DNA of 64,000 nucleotides from Minisyncoccia bacterium (GTDB taxonomy: Bacteria > Patescibacteriota > Minisyncoccia > Phycocordibacterales > UBA9973). Below, piece by piece: positions 36,320 to 42,872 of the stretch. The stretch is taken from contig JBAQNN010000003.1 of the NCBI GenBank assembly GCA_049303835.1, forward strand, positions 114,820-178,819, given 5' to 3'. Position 1 is the first letter of the stretch, and each line of letters opens with the position of its first letter. Under the pieces are notes generated by a model that made no database searches, was not told the origin of the DNA, and saw nothing but the letters and a program-made list of their open reading frames with translations. A program made the translations under genes and the position numbers.

Positions 36320-37324
36320 TTAGTACTCTTCATTTATGTCTTTATCATCACCAGGATCTTCGTTGTTGAATAAGGTTTCATCGTTATATGGACTTTCGTC
36401 TTCCTTATCTTCAAAGAAATTAGGTTCTTGCGATTCATTGTTTTTTATCCGTGAAGACCATATTTCAGGATGCCTTAACTCTGGTTCAGGTAATATGGTA
36501 AAAATAGGCTCATAGAATTCCTTTTTATCTGTGAATGGATCTTCGTTTGTTTTAAAGATAGTCTTAAGTGTGTCTGAAAGTATTCTCTTTGTTTGGTAGA
36601 CATTTTCTTTTGTTATTCCATTTCCTCCTGTGTGATTTTTAAACATCGGACCTATGTTTGCCGGTGTTGCTTCTGTAATATTTCTAAGCTGGAACACAGA
36701 AAGAATTACTAAAAGTTGCCATCCTCTATTTGGTTTATGATTTTTTGTATTTGAGCTGAAGCCAAGATCAATATAACTTTTTGTTCCCAAAGTTTTGTCT
36801 TTATAGACAACCTCAACATCTTCCTTCCCATCTTTAATTTTTAGAGTTAATCCATCCCATTGAATCGGTTCGACAAAATCAAATTTAAAAATGTTCTTAT
36901 CTCTCTTTTTTTCTCTATTTTTTACTAAAATATTCTCAACTTCGTTTGTTTTTTCTTCTGGATTTAATTCAAAAATAATTTTTTTAATCCTTGTCTTTAT
37001 ATCTTGTATACTTTCACCATTAATTTGCCCAAGCTGAACAAAATCATAGTTTGGATGTTCGTGGTCTATATACATATCCGGGGATTCATTTTCTAGATCA
37101 AAAGTTATATGAAAATCCACTCCTTTTTTTTGCAGAAATGTTTCAATATCATGTATATGTTTACCATTTTTAAGAACGGTAAAATCTATATCGTCAAAAG
37201 AAATCCAAAGATATTTGTCTTCCAATTCTTCTCCTGGATTATATATTTCAAAACGATCACAACAATATTCTAATTGTTTAAGTATTTCTAAAGTTTCGTG
37301 GTGAAATGTAGATAACTTTTCCAT
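36320..37324 (-). CDS. hypothetical protein (334 aa) with acidic C-terminal tail, encoded immediately downstream of the PHP-SMC ATPase
   Basis: ORF with a hairpin terminator at about 36290-36316; no motif recognised; the 14-nt gap to the upstream gene suggests an operon. Confidence 0.45.
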   Translation of the reverse strand: MEKLSTFHHETLEILKQLEYCCDRFEIYNPGEELEDKYLWISFDDIDFTVLKNGKHIHDIETFLQKKGVDFHITFDLENESPDMYIDHEHPNYDFVQLGQINGESIQDIKTRIKKIIFELNPEEKTNEVENILVKNREKKRDKNIFKFDFVEPIQWDGLTLKIKDGKEDVEVVYKDKTLGTKSYIDLGFSSNTKNHKPNRGWQLLVILSVFQLRNITEATPANIGPMFKNHTGGNGITKENVYQTKRILSDTLKTIFKTNEDPFTDKKEFYEPIFTILPEPELRHPEIWSSRIKNNESQEPNFFEDKEDESPYNDETLFNNEDPGDDKDINEEY

Positions 37325-37338
37325 TAATTTAAAAGATT

Positions 37339-40300
37339 TTATTTTCTGATATATTTATTGCCTCTAATATCAAATGCCGGTAACGTACCCTCTAACACAT
37401 CAGATGCCTTCTTATTCATTTCAATATTCTCTATACTACCAAATGTGTATCTTATTTGATTTTTCTGTTTATTCATTGAAACGGCGACAATTTGCTCCGC
37501 ATCACACACAATAGCTAAATTAGGGTTGTGCGTAACAATGATAATTTGCCTTTTCAACTTTGCTTTCCGTATATAGGGAACGAGCAGTTCAAAAATCGAC
37601 TCATTATCTAGATTTTCCTCTGGCTGATCCATAATCAAAGGTATCCTCTCTTTGTCTATTAGTAGGTAAAAAATGAGCAATAATGCCCCCTTTTCTCCTG
37701 GTGAAAATTCATTACTGTTTAGATCTTTGCCGTTAAATAATACTTTATATTTAACATTTAAGTAATCTAAACCAAAGATGTAATCATAAAATTGTATGTT
37801 CTCTTGTTCTCCACCTTTAAGTTGAGAACGCAGAGTACTTTCTTTTTCAGGATTTTGGGTTTTATCATATTTTAAGTGTTCAATTAATTCTTGTGTAAAA
37901 TTTTTAATTCCAGTAGGACCAGAAAAATCAGTTTTATCAGTAATCTTGTTCAGCACTTTTTGCCCTTTATCTGTATATTGAAAACTACCATCTCGGTTTT
38001 GGTTAATGTAACCAAGAAAGCGATTTGTAAAAGAACTTCTATCAAAAACCACACCGGCATCAAATTCAAGCATACTCCCAGATTCCTCTTGTGTTTTCTT
38101 TTCAACCTCTATAAATCTTTGAATTGGGCGGTAAATATCTTTATAAAAATTAGATTTTTGTTGTAACTCTGTATATAGATTTCCGGCTAGTAAGTCTCTT
38201 TCATTGAGTTCATTTTTTAGGTCAGAGTAAACTTTTTTATCGAGATATTTTATTTCCGTTTCAATTGATTGAATAGTCTCTAGAGTTAAATCATTTGGCT
38301 TACCCTCAATCTCTTTTTTTCTCGCTTCATATTCTTTAATTTTGTTTTGGTATGCAGAATATTTCTTTTGATCTTCTCCTAGAACATTAACCATTTTTTC
38401 CTTTTGTGATTCAAGGTCTGACTTTTTTGCATAAAGACTTTTGGATGAAGGGTTATCATTTTGATCCAACAACTCTTCTAGGTGTTTTTTCTTTTTAGAT
38501 AATTGTTGTTCTGCCTTGTCTAAAATTTTATTATCAACTTTAATACTCAAAAGCTCTGACAAATTGATTGAGAGGAATTTCGCATCTTCTGTAAAGTCTC
38601 TTACTATTGTAGCGGCGCTTTCTGTAATATGTCCAACTGCTGCTTTAAGTTTTACAAGCTTGTTGAGCTTGTCGTTAACTGTTTTTATAGAAGCTTTTGC
38701 GGTTTCAATTTCTTTTGAAATTGTTTCTATTCCGTCCGTTATTTTAGTTAGTTTATCTTGGTCGGTTTTTTTAAGCTGATTTTTGGGCGCAACAACCGTC
38801 TTAGGTTTAATTAAGCTTTTTAATTCCTGCTTTTTACCTTCAAGCTTATTTTGTAGTGATTCTAAATATTGGGGATAAAGTTTCCCCTCCAATTTAACAA
38901 GTCGCTCATTTACAGAATGAAGATCAGCCCTAATCTGCACAACCCTACCTTCGATTGTAGAAGTTTTTACATCTATAAGATCAATAAGGTTTGTCGTATT
39001 TAGTCTATTTTCTTCTGGAATATAGGAAAAAATGACCTTATCTATTTCTCTTTGAAATTGGGAACTTACACCATCTTCATTACATATTGTCTCTACATAT
39101 TTTTGTGGTAAATACTTTATTTTTTCAACCTCTGTAGCACTTACCTTTGCATCAAGATTTTCAGTAATAGATACCCCATCTAACCATGTCATAGTTGCTT
39201 CATAACCTTTTGCTAAACCTCTCTTACGGAATTTATCTTCACGTAGAAAAGAATAGTCTTTTGGATCTATTTTAGTCCTTCCACATAAACCAACTATGTC
39301 AGTTAATGCACTTTTTCCTTGACCTTTTCTTCCAATAATAGCAACTAACCCGGAATTCAAAGAAATTTCACTATTAAACCAACCAGATGTTTGTTTACTG
39401 TCTATATGTCCAACTTTTACAGACTCCACAAATCTTGAACGGTTTGATTCGACATCTAAAAGTTTTTCTGGTTTATCGCCCAAAAAGACTCTCTCTTGTG
39501 GTTCATGAGTAATTTGTTTTAAGCCCTCAAAGGTTTTATCTGCTTTTATCCAAGTGGGGGAAGTGTGTCTTGTGCTATCATTCAAAAACTTTTTCCCAAC
39601 CTTATCATCAAAATCTTCGAAAGAGTGAGCATCACTTCCAGAGATACAGGCTTTTTTCTTTCTTACTTTACCTCTATCATTAAGAAAAAATTCTCTGTCT
39701 TTTCCATCACAGCCAAAATAAATGTCTGCTACTCTCTTATCTGTTTCTTCAGCAACTGCGTTCTTTCTAGAGTTATCCTTTTCCGGCTGTATGCCACCAT
39801 GTCCATGAGCCATGAGTATTCTAAAAAATGGCCGTTTATCACCGAATGTATCTTTGAGAGCTTCGTCGATAAAAGGAATTGTGGTAAAAGCAGTTTTAAA
39901 ATCGTTTTCTGTTTTTAATTCGCTTGCCTTTAGTTTTTTACCATTAGTATTCGTATTTTCTAACTTTAAATTATGTAGAAAGTTTTCTAGTTCTACATCA
40001 TCAATCTTATTATCAAAAACTAAGTGCAAATCATACCCTTCATTGCGATTGTTCGAGGAACGGTCAACTCTTAACTCAATGTTAGGGAAAAATACCTTTT
40101 CTGATTTTGGATATTTTACTTCAAACTTCTTTTTAAAAATAAGGTAATTTTCTACAGAAAAATAGTCTGTTATACCAAAAACTTCCACATCTGCACTTTC
40201 CACCTTTTCGCAAAATTCTATCCATACATCGCTGTTTTGAGTATTAGAATAATTATTATTTAACTTTGTGAAAGGCGTATGAGTATGTAAATCCCATTTT

Positions 40301-40344
40301 CTCCATTCAGAACCCCTGTTAAATTTTGGATCTCCATTATTCAT
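37339..40344 (-). CDS. PHP-domain phosphoesterase fused to an SMC/Rad50/SbcC-like ABC ATPase with coiled-coil insertion (1001 aa)
   Basis: N-terminal PHP motifs WDLHTHTP ... GSDAHS; Walker A GRKGQGKS at about aa 330; roughly 400-aa heptad-rich coiled coil without a CxxC hook; C-terminal signature-like FSPGEKG, Walker B PLIMDQPE, H-loop IVTHNPN. Confidence 0.7.
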   Translation of the reverse strand: MNNGDPKFNRGSEWRKWDLHTHTPFTKLNNNYSNTQNSDVWIEFCEKVESADVEVFGITDYFSVENYLIFKKKFEVKYPKSEKVFFPNIELRVDRSSNNRNEGYDLHLVFDNKIDDVELENFLHNLKLENTNTNGKKLKASELKTENDFKTAFTTIPFIDEALKDTFGDKRPFFRILMAHGHGGIQPEKDNSRKNAVAEETDKRVADIYFGCDGKDREFFLNDRGKVRKKKACISGSDAHSFEDFDDKVGKKFLNDSTRHTSPTWIKADKTFEGLKQITHEPQERVFLGDKPEKLLDVESNRSRFVESVKVGHIDSKQTSGWFNSEISLNSGLVAIIGRKGQGKSALTDIVGLCGRTKIDPKDYSFLREDKFRKRGLAKGYEATMTWLDGVSITENLDAKVSATEVEKIKYLPQKYVETICNEDGVSSQFQREIDKVIFSYIPEENRLNTTNLIDLIDVKTSTIEGRVVQIRADLHSVNERLVKLEGKLYPQYLESLQNKLEGKKQELKSLIKPKTVVAPKNQLKKTDQDKLTKITDGIETISKEIETAKASIKTVNDKLNKLVKLKAAVGHITESAATIVRDFTEDAKFLSINLSELLSIKVDNKILDKAEQQLSKKKKHLEELLDQNDNPSSKSLYAKKSDLESQKEKMVNVLGEDQKKYSAYQNKIKEYEARKKEIEGKPNDLTLETIQSIETEIKYLDKKVYSDLKNELNERDLLAGNLYTELQQKSNFYKDIYRPIQRFIEVEKKTQEESGSMLEFDAGVVFDRSSFTNRFLGYINQNRDGSFQYTDKGQKVLNKITDKTDFSGPTGIKNFTQELIEHLKYDKTQNPEKESTLRSQLKGGEQENIQFYDYIFGLDYLNVKYKVLFNGKDLNSNEFSPGEKGALLLIFYLLIDKERIPLIMDQPEENLDNESIFELLVPYIRKAKLKRQIIIVTHNPNLAIVCDAEQIVAVSMNKQKNQIRYTFGSIENIEMNKKASDVLEGTLPAFDIRGNKYIRK

Positions 40345-40399
40345 GTTTATGCTCAGAGTATAGCATTTTTTGCTAAAAAAACATTATAACTAATAGGGT

Positions 40400-40621
40400 A
40401 TATTAGTTTTACACTTTCTTTATATTTCTTCCCCACAAACACTGCTAACATCAGCAGCGCCATCAATTTTTAACCGGTTATCATTAGATGAGAAGTTTAA
40501 AAAGTATAAAAACGATACAGTTACTAGATATATATATTATGGTTGCACAAAAGCACGAGGTACTGATTCTAAATGTGGATATACTGAAGAAGTAGCATTT
40601 GCTATTTTGTTGCTAATATGA
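40400..40621 (+). pseudogene. possible remnant of a second serine-recombinase zinc-ribbon region (no start codon)
   Basis: Open frame ...RLSLDEKFKKYKNDTVTRYIYYGCTKARGTDSKCGYTEE... loosely resembles the ...KKHIYLGARCDKSCPNTRK... region of the 30900..32603 recombinase; weak. Confidence 0.2.
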
Positions 40622-41101: not shown

Positions 41102-42181
41102 ATGAAACAACATATAAAATCATTACCACATCATCCAAAGAGAGTAGTCGTACTCTCTTTGATTGTCGCCCTCACAGTGGGTACTTTTGGTTATCTGCAA
41201 ATTAATAAAAAGGTCGCTACCCCGGTGATACCAGAAAGTACAAAGAGTGATGTGACGAATTTATCTTCTGGCAACCTGACCTTGGGCTTTTTGGCTTCTG
41301 GACGAATTAAGTCTGTTTCCGTAAAGGCTGGCGATACAGTTACCAAAGGCCAAGTACTTGCGGAGCTGGATGCAGGTAATACTTTGGGTGCCCTTACTCA
41401 AGCCCGGGCTGCATATAAAGGCGCACAGGCTAGTTATCAAAAAGTGATCAATGGTGCGACTGGTACTACCATAGATGTGGTCAAGGCTGCTTTAAATACC
41501 GCAAAGACAAATCTGGAACAAGTAACTAATCAACAGAATACTTTGGTTATCAATGCGAGACGAAAACTTTATTCGGATAGTCTAGTGGCTGTATCAAATG
41601 ACGATACTAGGAGAAATATTATTCCTACAATTACGGGTAACTACGATGGATCACAAGAAGGCCAGTATAAAATCTATTTTGCAGATTTTAATGCTCTATA
41701 TAACAGAAATGAGGTATCTTTTTTGGGTCTAGAAAGAGGTATCGCAGAAAAAAGTGATGTACCCCAAAAGTTTGGCACAAAGGGACTTCTAATTGCATTT
41801 CCTGAGGCAGATTATCGTCTCGATGATAGGTGGATAGTAGATATACCAAATAAAAACGGGGCAAACTATGTCGCCAATCTAAATGCATATCAATCTGCAA
41901 TTCAAACAAAAGATCAATCTATTGCTACAGCCCAAGCATCCCTTGATCAAGCAAATGCAAACCTTGTTTCTATAGCGACTACTGCTCGCCCAGAAGATGT
42001 TGAGGGAGCTCAAGCGCAAGTGAATAGTGCGCTTGGAGCCGTACAAATTGCGGAAGCTGCTTACAACAATACTATTATTACTGCGCCGACGGACGGCACT
42101 ATTACCTCAGTGGTAATTGCGGCTGGACAAATAGCAGTACCGAATGCTTCTGCTATCGAATTAAAAACTAATAATTTTTAA
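41102..42181 (+). CDS. HlyD-family periplasmic adaptor (membrane fusion protein)
   Basis: N-terminal TM; biotin-lipoyl-like GRIKSVSVKAGDTVTKGQVLAELD; long helical hairpin; C-terminal beta domain. Confidence 0.6.
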   Translation: MKQHIKSLPHHPKRVVVLSLIVALTVGTFGYLQINKKVATPVIPESTKSDVTNLSSGNLTLGFLASGRIKSVSVKAGDTVTKGQVLAELDAGNTLGALTQARAAYKGAQASYQKVINGATGTTIDVVKAALNTAKTNLEQVTNQQNTLVINARRKLYSDSLVAVSNDDTRRNIIPTITGNYDGSQEGQYKIYFADFNALYNRNEVSFLGLERGIAEKSDVPQKFGTKGLLIAFPEADYRLDDRWIVDIPNKNGANYVANLNAYQSAIQTKDQSIATAQASLDQANANLVSIATTARPEDVEGAQAQVNSALGAVQIAEAAYNNTIITAPTDGTITSVVIAAGQIAVPNASAIELKTNNF

Positions 42182-42191
42182 ATTACATTAT

Positions 42192-42872
42192 ATGGAAACA
42201 AATATCAAAAAAGCACTTGAAGCAGAAGAAGGTTTTGAAGAAAAAATTAAAAAACAACATATATTAAAAACACCCTGGATACGAAGTGCAATATATTTTG
42301 TTGTTATCTTTGGTTTACTAGGTATTTTTCTCTTTTGGCAAGCAGAACGTGGTAGTATATCTATTGAAAATTCATATTTAGATGCACCAATTGTAAATCT
42401 TACCCCAACTTCACCTGGAACCTTAAATGCATTATATGTTAAAGAGGGAGACAGAGTGCAAGCGAACTCACAAATAGCATTAGTTGGTTCACAAATAATT
42501 TATACTAAAGAAGGCGGTATTATTTCTAGTGCACCCCTTGTTTTGGGTTCCTACTATGCTCCTGGGCAGACTGTTGTTTCTGTCGTTAATGACGAGAAAA
42601 TGAGAGTTATAGGAAAAATAGAAGAAACTAAGGGATTAGATAGTATAAAAGTCGGGCAACGTGCTACTTTTACTGTTGATACGTTTCCTGACAATGAATA
42701 TGAAGGTGTCGTTAATGAAATAAGTCCAGTATCAAACAATAGTGGTATTTTATTTTCTATTTCAGACAAAAGACCAGTCAATAAGTTTAACGTCTATATA
42801 ACATTTGATGTATCTAAATATCCAGAATTAAAATCTGGCATGTCTGCTAAGTTATTGGTATATAGCAGATAG
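42192..42872 (+). CDS. HlyD/EmrA-like secretion (adaptor) protein
   Basis: TM anchor; lipoyl-like LNALYVKEGDRVQANSQIALV; sits directly upstream of the EmrB-type MFS pump. Confidence 0.55.
   Translation: METNIKKALEAEEGFEEKIKKQHILKTPWIRSAIYFVVIFGLLGIFLFWQAERGSISIENSYLDAPIVNLTPTSPGTLNALYVKEGDRVQANSQIALVGSQIIYTKEGGIISSAPLVLGSYYAPGQTVVSVVNDEKMRVIGKIEETKGLDSIKVGQRATFTVDTFPDNEYEGVVNEISPVSNNSGILFSISDKRPVNKFNVYITFDVSKYPELKSGMSAKLLVYSR

Follow-up and report, generated by a model that had tools for sequence, protein, structure and literature searches.

A putative single-gene defence nuclease of the TrlF family carried by an integrated element in a Minisyncoccia genome

What is the function of a single polypeptide that joins a domain of the polymerase and histidinol phosphatase (PHP) type to an SMC/Rad50-like ABC ATPase, and is such a fusion new? 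The question is raised by a gene at positions 37339..40344 (minus strand) of a 64,000-nucleotide (nt) stretch of a Minisyncoccia bacterium genome (contig JBAQNN010000003.1, positions 114,820 to 178,819; hereafter the window). An earlier note, made from the sequence alone, had described this architecture as unusual, had placed the gene on an integrated element, and had suggested either a one-polypeptide SbcCD analogue or a novel defence or repair ATPase. The analysis presented here assigned the protein to the TrlF family, which stands as a sister to anti-phage protein Ppl, and on balance favours a self-contained defence nuclease that is carried as cargo of a mobile element.

The gene is a single ATG-to-stop open reading frame (ORF) of 1001 codons without interruption, the length of which is far above chance at a G+C content of 30-34%; the earlier note had located this real ORF correctly but had not given its strand, which is minus. 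More than 100 homologues of 950-1050 amino acids (aa) were aligned to 99-100% of the length of the protein. Among the best 150 representatives from a library of 1.84 billion proteins, every match consisted of a single stretch and 148 extended from end to end, the other two being shorter at the N-terminal side (P0171, 833 aa, covers profile positions 193-994 only, and P0180 begins at position 17). The constant length of the homologues and the single-stretch matches in the library rule out a frameshift fusion of two adjacent genes, which had been considered as a possible artefact.

The protein scored 604.8 bits (E 4.7e-181) on the NCBIfam model NF045780 (TrlF family AAA-like ATPase), for which the cut-off is 350, and residues 10-998 were aligned to positions 1-943 of the 944 positions of the profile. 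Membership of the TrlF family is regarded as virtually certain. The same name is used by PGAP for plasmid homologues in Sulfitobacter, Staphylococcus, Burkholderia, Rhizobium, Vibrio, Klebsiella, and E. coli. With this clear, full-length match to a curated and named family, and with Ppl as an end-to-end homologue, the supposed novelty of the architecture falls away; the architecture is already known, and the protein is a member of a large named family that was found here in an under-studied phylum. The family is named after trlF of the "temperature restriction locus" (TRL; trlR-trlF-trlG) of Photorhabdus laumondii, a locus leading to conditional growth arrest, in which TrlF was annotated as a histidinol phosphatase and its own function was not demonstrated (PMC7554251).

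Four parts were distinguished in the protein, and all of the motifs quoted in the earlier note were found in them. The PHP domain (approximately aa 10-300; 39445..40317, minus strand), delimited by alignment, by Pfam matches of relatives, and by Foldseek, contains DLHTHT at aa 18-23 and GSDAHS at aa 236-241 in true protein numbering. It is followed by the N-lobe of the ABC ATPase (approximately aa 305-446; 39007..39432, minus strand), which was defined by motifs, by a sequence match in the PDB, and by Foldseek, and which includes Walker A (GRKGQGKS, aa 338-345) and the Q-loop (LPQKY, aa 412-416). An antiparallel coiled-coil insertion (approximately aa 453-755; 38080..38988, minus strand), delimited by the predicted secondary structure, separates this lobe from the C-lobe and a conserved C-terminal tail (approximately aa 758-1001; 37342..38073, minus strand), which were recognised by motifs and by a match to Rad50. 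The C-lobe carries the signature FSPGEKG (aa 880-886), Walker B LIMDQPE (aa 903-909), the D-loop ENLD (aa 910-913), and the H-loop VTHN (aa 937-940), and its tail shows the motif LEGTLPAF..R..KY.

The AlphaFold2 model, built from a family alignment of 32 sequences, had a mean predicted local distance difference test (pLDDT) score of 84.2 and a predicted template modelling (pTM) score of 0.67. In the model, the coiled coil comprises about 300 residues, with helix breaks near aa 510-525 and 681-690 and an apex near aa 590-604, and only helices and short breaks, with no hinge domain, lie between the two lobes. The cysteines of the protein are confined to positions 45, 212, 233, 354, 421, and 947. 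The reported absence of a zinc hook therefore stands, there being no cysteine, and hence no CxxC motif, between residues 421 and 947, whereas the reported coiled-coil length of about 400 residues has to be reduced to about 300.

In the structural comparison with the PDB by Foldseek, the ATPase with its coiled coil matched the heads of SMC (5xei, E 1.8e-9), Rad50 (7zr1), MukB, Wadjet JetC, Lamassu LmuB (9hqx_B), RecN, and RecF, the E values for all but RecF being within 1e-9 to 1e-6. The N-terminal domain matched the PHP domain of RNase AM (7ug9; E 7.6e-4, TMt 0.58, root-mean-square deviation 4.8 over 241 columns; also 9etk). By sequence, the closest solved relatives were again the heads of Rad50 and SMC, the N-lobe matching that of Rad50 and residues 813-961 matching Rad50 3qku. 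No Ppl or TrlF structure was present among the PDB matches of either search. For this protein the Pfam models AAA_21 (25.5 against a cut-off of 27) and SMC_N remained just under threshold; the architecture probably looked new because Pfam alone is uninformative for this sequence. Over the 32 aligned family members, PHP (PF02811) was detected in 7 (best E 7.7e-9), AAA_21 in all 32, and SMC_N in 27. The protein is a PHP-type phosphoesterase fused in one chain to an SMC/Rad50-like ABC head with a hook-less coiled coil, and this reading, first made from motifs, is upheld by the conserved ligands described below, the AlphaFold2 model, the Foldseek matches, and the family-wide Pfam scan.

The candidate metal ligands of the PHP domain are H20, H22, D60, E90, H107, H181/H183, D238, and H240. 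In the family alignment, H20, H22, D60, E90, and D238 were present in 32/32 sequences, H240 in 27/32, and H107 in 22/32. Walker B reads DQPE in 117/117 full-length homologues, with Gln at the site of the canonical catalytic Glu, and the same motif is found in E. coli Ppl and in a TrlF member encoded by a Yersinia phage. In Rad50, SMC, and ABC ATPases, an engineered Glu-to-Gln substitution at this site, the 'EQ' change with which such heads are trapped, keeps ATP binding and head engagement and blocks hydrolysis. Judged from the sequence, the invariant DQPE suggests that the head is no fast motor but a switch or sensor operated by nucleotide binding.

To relate the family to Ppl, its profile was aligned by hhalign with E. 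coli Ppl, represented by the PGAP-annotated protein WP_015059139.1 (891 aa) from an IncF plasmid. The alignment extended over 822 columns (query 8-993, Ppl 2-888) with a probability of 99.7% and an E value of 1.6e-26, and HxH, (T/S)D, E, SDAH, Walker A, the signature, DQPE, the H-loop, and the EG..AF..R tail were common to both proteins. By these alignments, TrlF and Ppl are end-to-end homologues that form sister families, and the present protein is not a Ppl equivalog. Ppl is a single-gene anti-phage system of E. coli with PHP and ATPase domains, and it is counteracted by protein gp130 of phage Bas63 (PMC11482910). In the brief account of a 2026 review, Ppl is a single-stranded DNA (ssDNA) 3'-5' exonuclease that is inhibited by nucleoside triphosphates (NTPs) bound at both the PHP and the NTPase domain, and that is activated by phage-induced nucleotide depletion together with the 3'-OH ends generated by phage homing endonucleases (PMC12904381). 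The natural Gln of Walker B, invariant in TrlF and also present in Ppl, is consistent with this reported control by NTP binding; it may underlie the NTP sensing of Ppl and is cheaply testable.

The family is large and widespread, with at least 3,201 clusters (50% identity) that its profile matched at E<=1e-30; at E<=1e-3 the number rose to 10,391. A scan of one genome per GTDB species gave at least 584 confirmed loci in about 20 phyla, including Patescibacteria, Pseudomonadota, Bacteroidota, Bacillota, Actinomycetota, Cyanobacteriota, Planctomycetota, Verrucomicrobiota, Acidobacteriota, Chloroflexota, and Nitrospirota. More than 1,100 plasmid records, mostly of conjugative plasmids, contained TrlF or Ppl. 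The P2-like Yersinia phage vB_YenM_42.18 carries an 872-aa TrlF-family gene at the cargo site between gpA and gpQ (L008 1748-4366; NF045780, 464.8 bits), which is likely a prophage-encoded defence gene. This phage gene is annotated in GenBank as 'chromosome partition protein Smc', mistakenly, as it encodes a TrlF-family PHP-ATPase. A fused PHP-SMC protein thus looks exotic in the raw sequence but is actually among the commoner single-gene cargo modules of plasmids, prophages, and integrative elements.

The neighbourhoods of the family were surveyed by clustering the tightly adjacent ORFs on the same strand from 78 diverse loci (a downstream ORF in 35 loci and an upstream ORF in 32). No conserved partner emerged across these loci, as 56 of the 67 adjacent ORFs were singletons and the largest cluster, HsdR, had 3 members; the idea of a conserved TrlF partner gene was rejected on this basis. 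Defence genes predominated among the annotated neighbours, in which HsdR occurred three times and HsdM and HsdS twice each, together with an MmeI-like enzyme of type IIG, an N6_N4 methylase, an SNF2 helicase, a GIY-YIG-bearing Schlafen-type helicase, UvrD with PD-(D/E)XK, ApeA (HEPN), Fic, and an AAA_21 protein. Within the candidate phyla radiation (CPR), the 79%-identical homologue comes after a type III restriction-modification (RM) unit of a helix-turn-helix (HTH) protein, a methylase, and ResIII; the 73%-identical homologue adjoins AbiE, a diversity-generating retroelement, and RadC; and the 41%-identical homologue (P0065) lies between a type III RM system and a protein with a FokI cleavage domain. 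A plasmid of Sulfitobacter has its TrlF gene between a type I RM system and a DUF262/DUF1524 protein, which we take to be GmrSD-like. A family without partners that occurs in RM and defence islands across about 20 phyla supports treating TrlF as an autonomous defence gene, and the PADLOC v2 models catch only Ppl proper, not TrlF.

Other CPR TrlF genes are closely coupled to different downstream genes. A 447-aa protein with a FokI cleavage domain is encoded 22 nt downstream of one TrlF gene (L017 8936-10279), and a 126-aa SET-domain protein is encoded 9 nt downstream of another (L005 10995-11375). From their positions, these genes may be functional partners of TrlF or mere defence-island neighbours.

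In the window, the outermost position in a block of minus-strand genes is taken by TrlF. Starting from the tRNA-Glu end, the block contains a large serine recombinase (30900-32603), a Prim-Pol/PriCT_1 protein (PrimPol; 32823-35111), a 171-aa protein (35130-35645), a 97-aa protein, a 334-aa protein (36320..37324), and TrlF. The backbone of this block, recognised by domain and tRNA searches, spans 30874..35111 (minus strand) and comprises the intact tRNA-Glu(UUC) gene (30874-30946, plus strand), which abuts or overlaps the 3' end of the recombinase gene, the recombinase, and PrimPol. The G+C content is 0.30-0.34 over 35.5-40.5 kb as against 0.38-0.45 in the flanks, and a divergently transcribed MarR/HlyD/EmrB efflux operon lies beyond TrlF. 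By blastn, window positions 35091-40420 corresponded to positions 4923-10254 of contig L021, from a second Paceibacterota genome, with 96.6% nucleotide identity, and this was the only part that the two had in common. It forms a four-gene cassette of 5.3 kb (TrlF, the 334-aa, 97-aa, and 171-aa proteins; 35091..40420, minus strand). In L021, genes for a DsbD_TM-domain protein (PF02683) and a redoxin adjoin the cassette at one end, and the gene at the other end encodes a 693-aa AAA_25 protein unrelated to PrimPol. Because the nearly identical segment has different flanks and a different replication gene in L021, the cassette has been exchanged between the backbones of integrative elements.

The proposal of an integrated mobile element is thus supported by the link to a tRNA gene, the serine recombinase, PrimPol, the drop in G+C content, and the exchange of the cassette. 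Elements with a serine recombinase and PrimPol also carry TrlF homologues in other CPR genomes (L016 and L004), and in L016 the homologue, with 46% identity, is the terminal cargo of an element that additionally has HTH_17. The TrlF/Ppl type of protein accordingly reaches the Patescibacteria as an exchangeable cassette on elements of the serine recombinase and PrimPol kind.

Taking the family assignment, the active-site residues, and the genomic contexts together, a role of the TrlF protein in defence is probable, and the fuller statement, that the gene encodes a self-contained defence nuclease of the TrlF family and is cargo of a mobile element, is considered somewhat likelier than its negation. 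Of the two functions proposed earlier, defence is favoured by the genomic context, whereas processing of double-strand breaks of the element is disfavoured by the defence neighbours and by the swapped replication module. A detailed mechanism like that of Ppl can be proposed only tentatively, by analogy, and we would hesitate to expect it in full. The protein would dimerise through its ABC heads, its coiled coils, or both, as Ppl homology suggests, and would bind DNA in the manner of Rad50-like heads, probably at ends. The PHP nuclease would be kept off by bound NTP. An invader that lowers NTP pools and exposes free 3'-OH ends would release the PHP domain to degrade DNA in the 3'-to-5' direction, and the degradation of invader DNA, and possibly of host DNA, would halt the replication of the phage or foreign element at a possible cost to the host.

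Several points weigh against this explanation. We know of no phage-host system for the group of the host, the Patescibacteria. In the searched literature, no TrlF-family protein proper had an experimentally shown role in anti-phage defence. The PHP model PF02811 did not match the protein itself at E<=0.01, and in the PHP 'TDH' motif this protein and most members of the TrlF family have Tyr where the canonical residue is His. Because RNase AM provides the nearest PHP fold among solved structures, RNA could be the substrate. With respect to Ppl, the protein failed the equivalog test (NF042955, 87.3 bits against a cut-off of 1000), the PADLOC model of Ppl (PDLC02208) matched only the C-lobe (aa 828-994; E 1.1e-15), and identity to Ppl is only about 21%. 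Given this low identity and the failed cut-off, the mechanism of Ppl can be transferred to the present protein by analogy only, and it is known here from one sentence of a review (PMC12904381). Finally, the growth arrest in Photorhabdus was mapped to TrlG (AlbA_2 + HATPase_c_4) and not to TrlF (PMC7554251).

The alternative that survives best concerns the 334-aa neighbour. In this reading, which we consider unlikely, TrlF and the 334-aa protein form a two-gene system in this lineage, with the smaller protein as a regulator, inhibitor, antitoxin, or adaptor. The gene of the 334-aa protein (36320..37324, minus strand) follows the TrlF stop codon at a distance of 14 nt, and, as had been noticed earlier, its product has an acidic tail, 16 of the last 38 residues being Asp or Glu. 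A hairpin resembling an intrinsic terminator, with a 10-bp stem containing 6 G-C pairs and followed by a T-run, lies directly after its stop codon (36284..36317, minus strand). The 14-nt gap and the position of the hairpin indicate that the two genes constitute one transcription unit. A putative promoter of this unit, an extended -10-like box TGCTATACT (40357..40365, minus strand), was read directly from the sequence; it ends 12 nt 5' of the TrlF ATG, within the conserved cassette, and it was not called by a simple consensus promoter scan, and its assignment to the TrlF gene is tentative.

The tight spacing, the strong terminator, and the inheritance of the pair together within the cassette on two different backbones speak for a two-gene system. 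The only distant homologue of the 334-aa protein (P0124, 37% identity) is moreover encoded 7 nt downstream of an ABC-type defence ATPase of a different kind, a 380-aa AriA/OLD/GajA-like AAA_15/AAA_21 protein (PADLOC AriA 4e-31), the pair being located at positions 520-2508 of the metagenomic contig L007, and other TrlF genes are tightly coupled to differing downstream genes, namely the FokI-domain and SET-domain genes mentioned above and trlG in Photorhabdus. Against it, only 4 homologues of the 334-aa protein were found among 5.8 billion proteins, the TrlF homologues with 79%, 73%, and 46% identity lack the 334-aa gene, no partner recurred in the 78 loci, and the pairing with an ATPase is known from two contexts only. 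The protein also has no assignable fold or domain: no meaningful match was obtained in Pfam (E<=5), NCBIfam, PHROG, or the sequences of the PDB, the PADLOC match to AbiEii was below threshold (E 0.0026), and the AlphaFold2 model from 5 sequences, with a pLDDT of 48, was too poor for a fold search. Homologues with 74% and 67% identity are located on contigs with at most 43 nt upstream, where a short stub alignment to the 3' end of TrlF is suggestive only.

The 334-aa protein is consequently not a family-wide partner of TrlF, as the earlier note might have led one to expect, and it is probably a lineage-specific accessory or an unrelated passenger rather than a core component. More doubtful still is a bolder form of the idea, in which the 334-aa protein is a portable accessory of ABC-type defence ATPases (for instance as an inhibitor or a mimic of DNA, as a brake resembling an antitoxin, or as a sensor adaptor) that serves TrlF here and an unrelated AriA/OLD-like ATPase in L007, with DQPE as the mark of a sensor of nucleotide levels and not of a motor. 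If this were true, the cassette would represent a two-component form of Ppl/TrlF-type defence that had not been described before. The L007 pair may itself be a candidate for a two-gene defence system, as yet uncharacterised.

It is improbable that the effector targets RNA or nucleotides instead of DNA, with the PHP domain acting as an exoribonuclease or nucleotide phosphatase in the manner of RNase AM or a 3',5'-nucleoside bisphosphate (pAp) phosphatase. The closest solved PHP folds belong to RNase AM (7ug9 and 9etk), the TrlF member of the Yersinia phage matches the NCBIfam models of RNase RNM (RNase AM) and of pAp phosphatase, and the anti-Ppl protein gp130 resembles the RNA-binding protein Ro60 (PMC11482910). 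These fold matches are weak, however (E ~1e-3), every solved SMC/Rad50-type coiled-coil head that was matched is a DNA-binding module, and Ppl is described in the review sentence as an ssDNA 3'-5' exonuclease (PMC12904381).

Nor is there much reason to see in the gene a module for addiction or growth arrest after the pattern of the 'temperature restriction locus', one that stabilises the element instead of acting against invaders; this is very improbable. The name-giving operon of Photorhabdus does lead to conditional growth arrest (PMC7554251), and TrlF genes are frequently carried on plasmids beside toxin-antitoxin systems such as Fst, AbiE, and Phd/YefM. The TRL phenotype was nevertheless mapped to TrlG, which is absent here, and no mutations in trlF arose in the Photorhabdus study (PMC7554251); neither AlbA_2 nor HATPase_c_4 was matched among the 334-aa, 97-aa, and 171-aa neighbour proteins, and neither trlG nor the gene of the small regulator, trlR, was encountered next to TrlF. 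Abortive-infection defence would also be expected to read out as growth arrest, and such a module is not a truly separate mechanism from the defence role preferred here.

Least probable of all is an element-encoded enzyme of DNA-end processing or double-strand-break repair, the one-polypeptide analogue of SbcCD/Mre11-Rad50 suggested at the outset, that would serve replication or integration of the element: its ATPase resembles Rad50 and SMC heads best in both sequence and fold, PHP domains are established exonucleases in PolX and PolC, and the cassette also holds a minimal PolX-like palm-thumb protein and adjoins PrimPol, but this analogy is without specific support, given that the protein has no zinc hook, that no Mre11/SbcD calcineurin-like nuclease gene was detected within the element by Pfam and NCBIfam scans, that the gene is sporadic, mobile, and located in RM and defence islands across phyla, that the adjacent replication module was swapped in L021 while TrlF was kept, that the characterised homologue Ppl is a defence protein, and that DQPE speaks against a robust ATP-hydrolysing machine.

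Other features of the element and its surroundings were also recorded. The 171-aa protein contains a nucleotidyltransferase motif of the Pol-beta type, AGSVRRKKAEVGDIEIV, and matched Pfam DNA_pol_B_thumb with 29.3 against a cut-off of 25; it was aligned to the palm and thumb (residues 167-313) of Thermus thermophilus PolX 3b0x with an E value of 0.001. From these matches, it looks like a minimal PolX-like polymerase without fingers or the 8-kDa domain. Its size is close to that of the smallest viral PolX enzymes, and bacterial PolX normally has a PHP domain of its own; the 171-aa gene shares its 5.3-kb cassette with the PHP-containing TrlF gene. A 24-nt AT-rich motif with the approximate consensus TTCATTCATATAATTTT (plus strand) occurs four times (35098-35121, 35632-35655, 35712-35735, and 36098-36121), and two of the copies run across the start codons of genes on the minus strand, those of PrimPol and the 171-aa protein. 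The motif may serve the element as a common promoter or as a signal for translation initiation.

At the tRNA end, the last 15 or so codons of the serine recombinase ORF are overlapped by the tRNA-Glu gene, which lies on the other strand. The 5' half of this tRNA gene recurs as a degenerate copy (30782-30798 and 30814-30835) about 90 nt upstream, and a tRNA-Ser(CGA) gene is present at 30635-30722. The region with the partial copy resembles the scar of a tRNA-associated integration site. No convincing duplication of an attachment (att) site or direct repeat was found between the two ends of the element, and no repeat matching the tRNA copy was present at the far end. A 73-codon open frame at about 40400-40620 (plus strand) was considered as a zinc-ribbon remnant of a recombinase and was rejected, as it has no likeness to the recombinase of the element and no support from Pfam. 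In the adjoining efflux operon, the HlyD-type membrane-fusion protein (41102-42872, plus strand) is represented by two consecutive ORFs 10 nt apart, of which the 359-aa ORF encodes a biotin-lipoyl part and the N-terminal barrel-sandwich part, and the 226-aa ORF encodes the C-terminal barrel-sandwich part and HlyD_3. The split recurs in the independent contigs L011 and L012 of the same population, and it could be either a genuinely split adaptor or two paralogous adaptors.

Among known systems, the protein can be compared with Rad50/SbcC with Mre11/SbcD, where a coiled-coil-split ABC head likewise works with a metal-dependent nuclease and where Rad50 is the best solved sequence match. In that system, however, the nuclease is a separate calcineurin-like subunit, whereas here a PHP nuclease domain is present in cis; the present protein has no CxxC hook, a much shorter coiled coil, and DQ instead of DE in Walker B, and its gene is not a conserved housekeeping locus as Rad50/SbcC is. 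Wadjet (JetABCD/MksBEFG) and Lamassu (LmuACB) also combine an SMC-type head, a coiled coil, and a nuclease effector against foreign DNA. They consist of multiple subunits (kleisin/KITE, or LmuA/LmuC) with hinge or dimerisation domains, whereas TrlF is one polypeptide here, and no genes for kleisin/KITE (JetA/JetB), JetD, LmuA, or LmuC partners were found nearby by Pfam and PADLOC. The likeness to LmuB is structural only (9hqx_B), no LmuB match having been returned for the TrlF protein by PADLOC. The class of OLD, Gabija GajA, and PARIS AriA is defined by an AAA_15-type head without a long coiled coil and by Toprim or AriB; the present protein has no Toprim domain and lies outside this class, and its PADLOC matches to AriA were weak (E ~1e-7) and confined to the C-lobe.

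The nearer relatives are found among the PHP-containing and AAA-like families themselves. The Spaf_1101 family AAA-like ATPase (NF045781) is a third sibling that has the C-terminal ABC lobe and tail in common with the protein (aa 590-998), its score of 78 bits being far under the cut-off of 475. The TRL of Photorhabdus has trlG and trlR as neighbours of trlF, whereas here neither is present, an orphan 334-aa gene is coupled instead, and the host belongs to the CPR. Ppl is likewise a single gene that encodes PHP and NTPase domains and resides on mobile elements (conjugative plasmids and prophage or satellite hotspots); it differs in its length of about 890 aa, in a shorter region between PHP and head, and in a canonical 'SDH' where 'TDY' is found here, and the anti-phage phenotype and the sensing of NTPs and 3'-OH ends have been shown for Ppl alone and would extend to the TrlF protein by homology. 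The closest agreement is with the TrlF family (NF045780), in which, as here, a protein of about 950-1050 aa begins with PHP and continues into a coiled-coil-split ABC head, and the motifs HxH, SDAH, GxKGxGKS, SPGE, DQPE, and THN are all shared.

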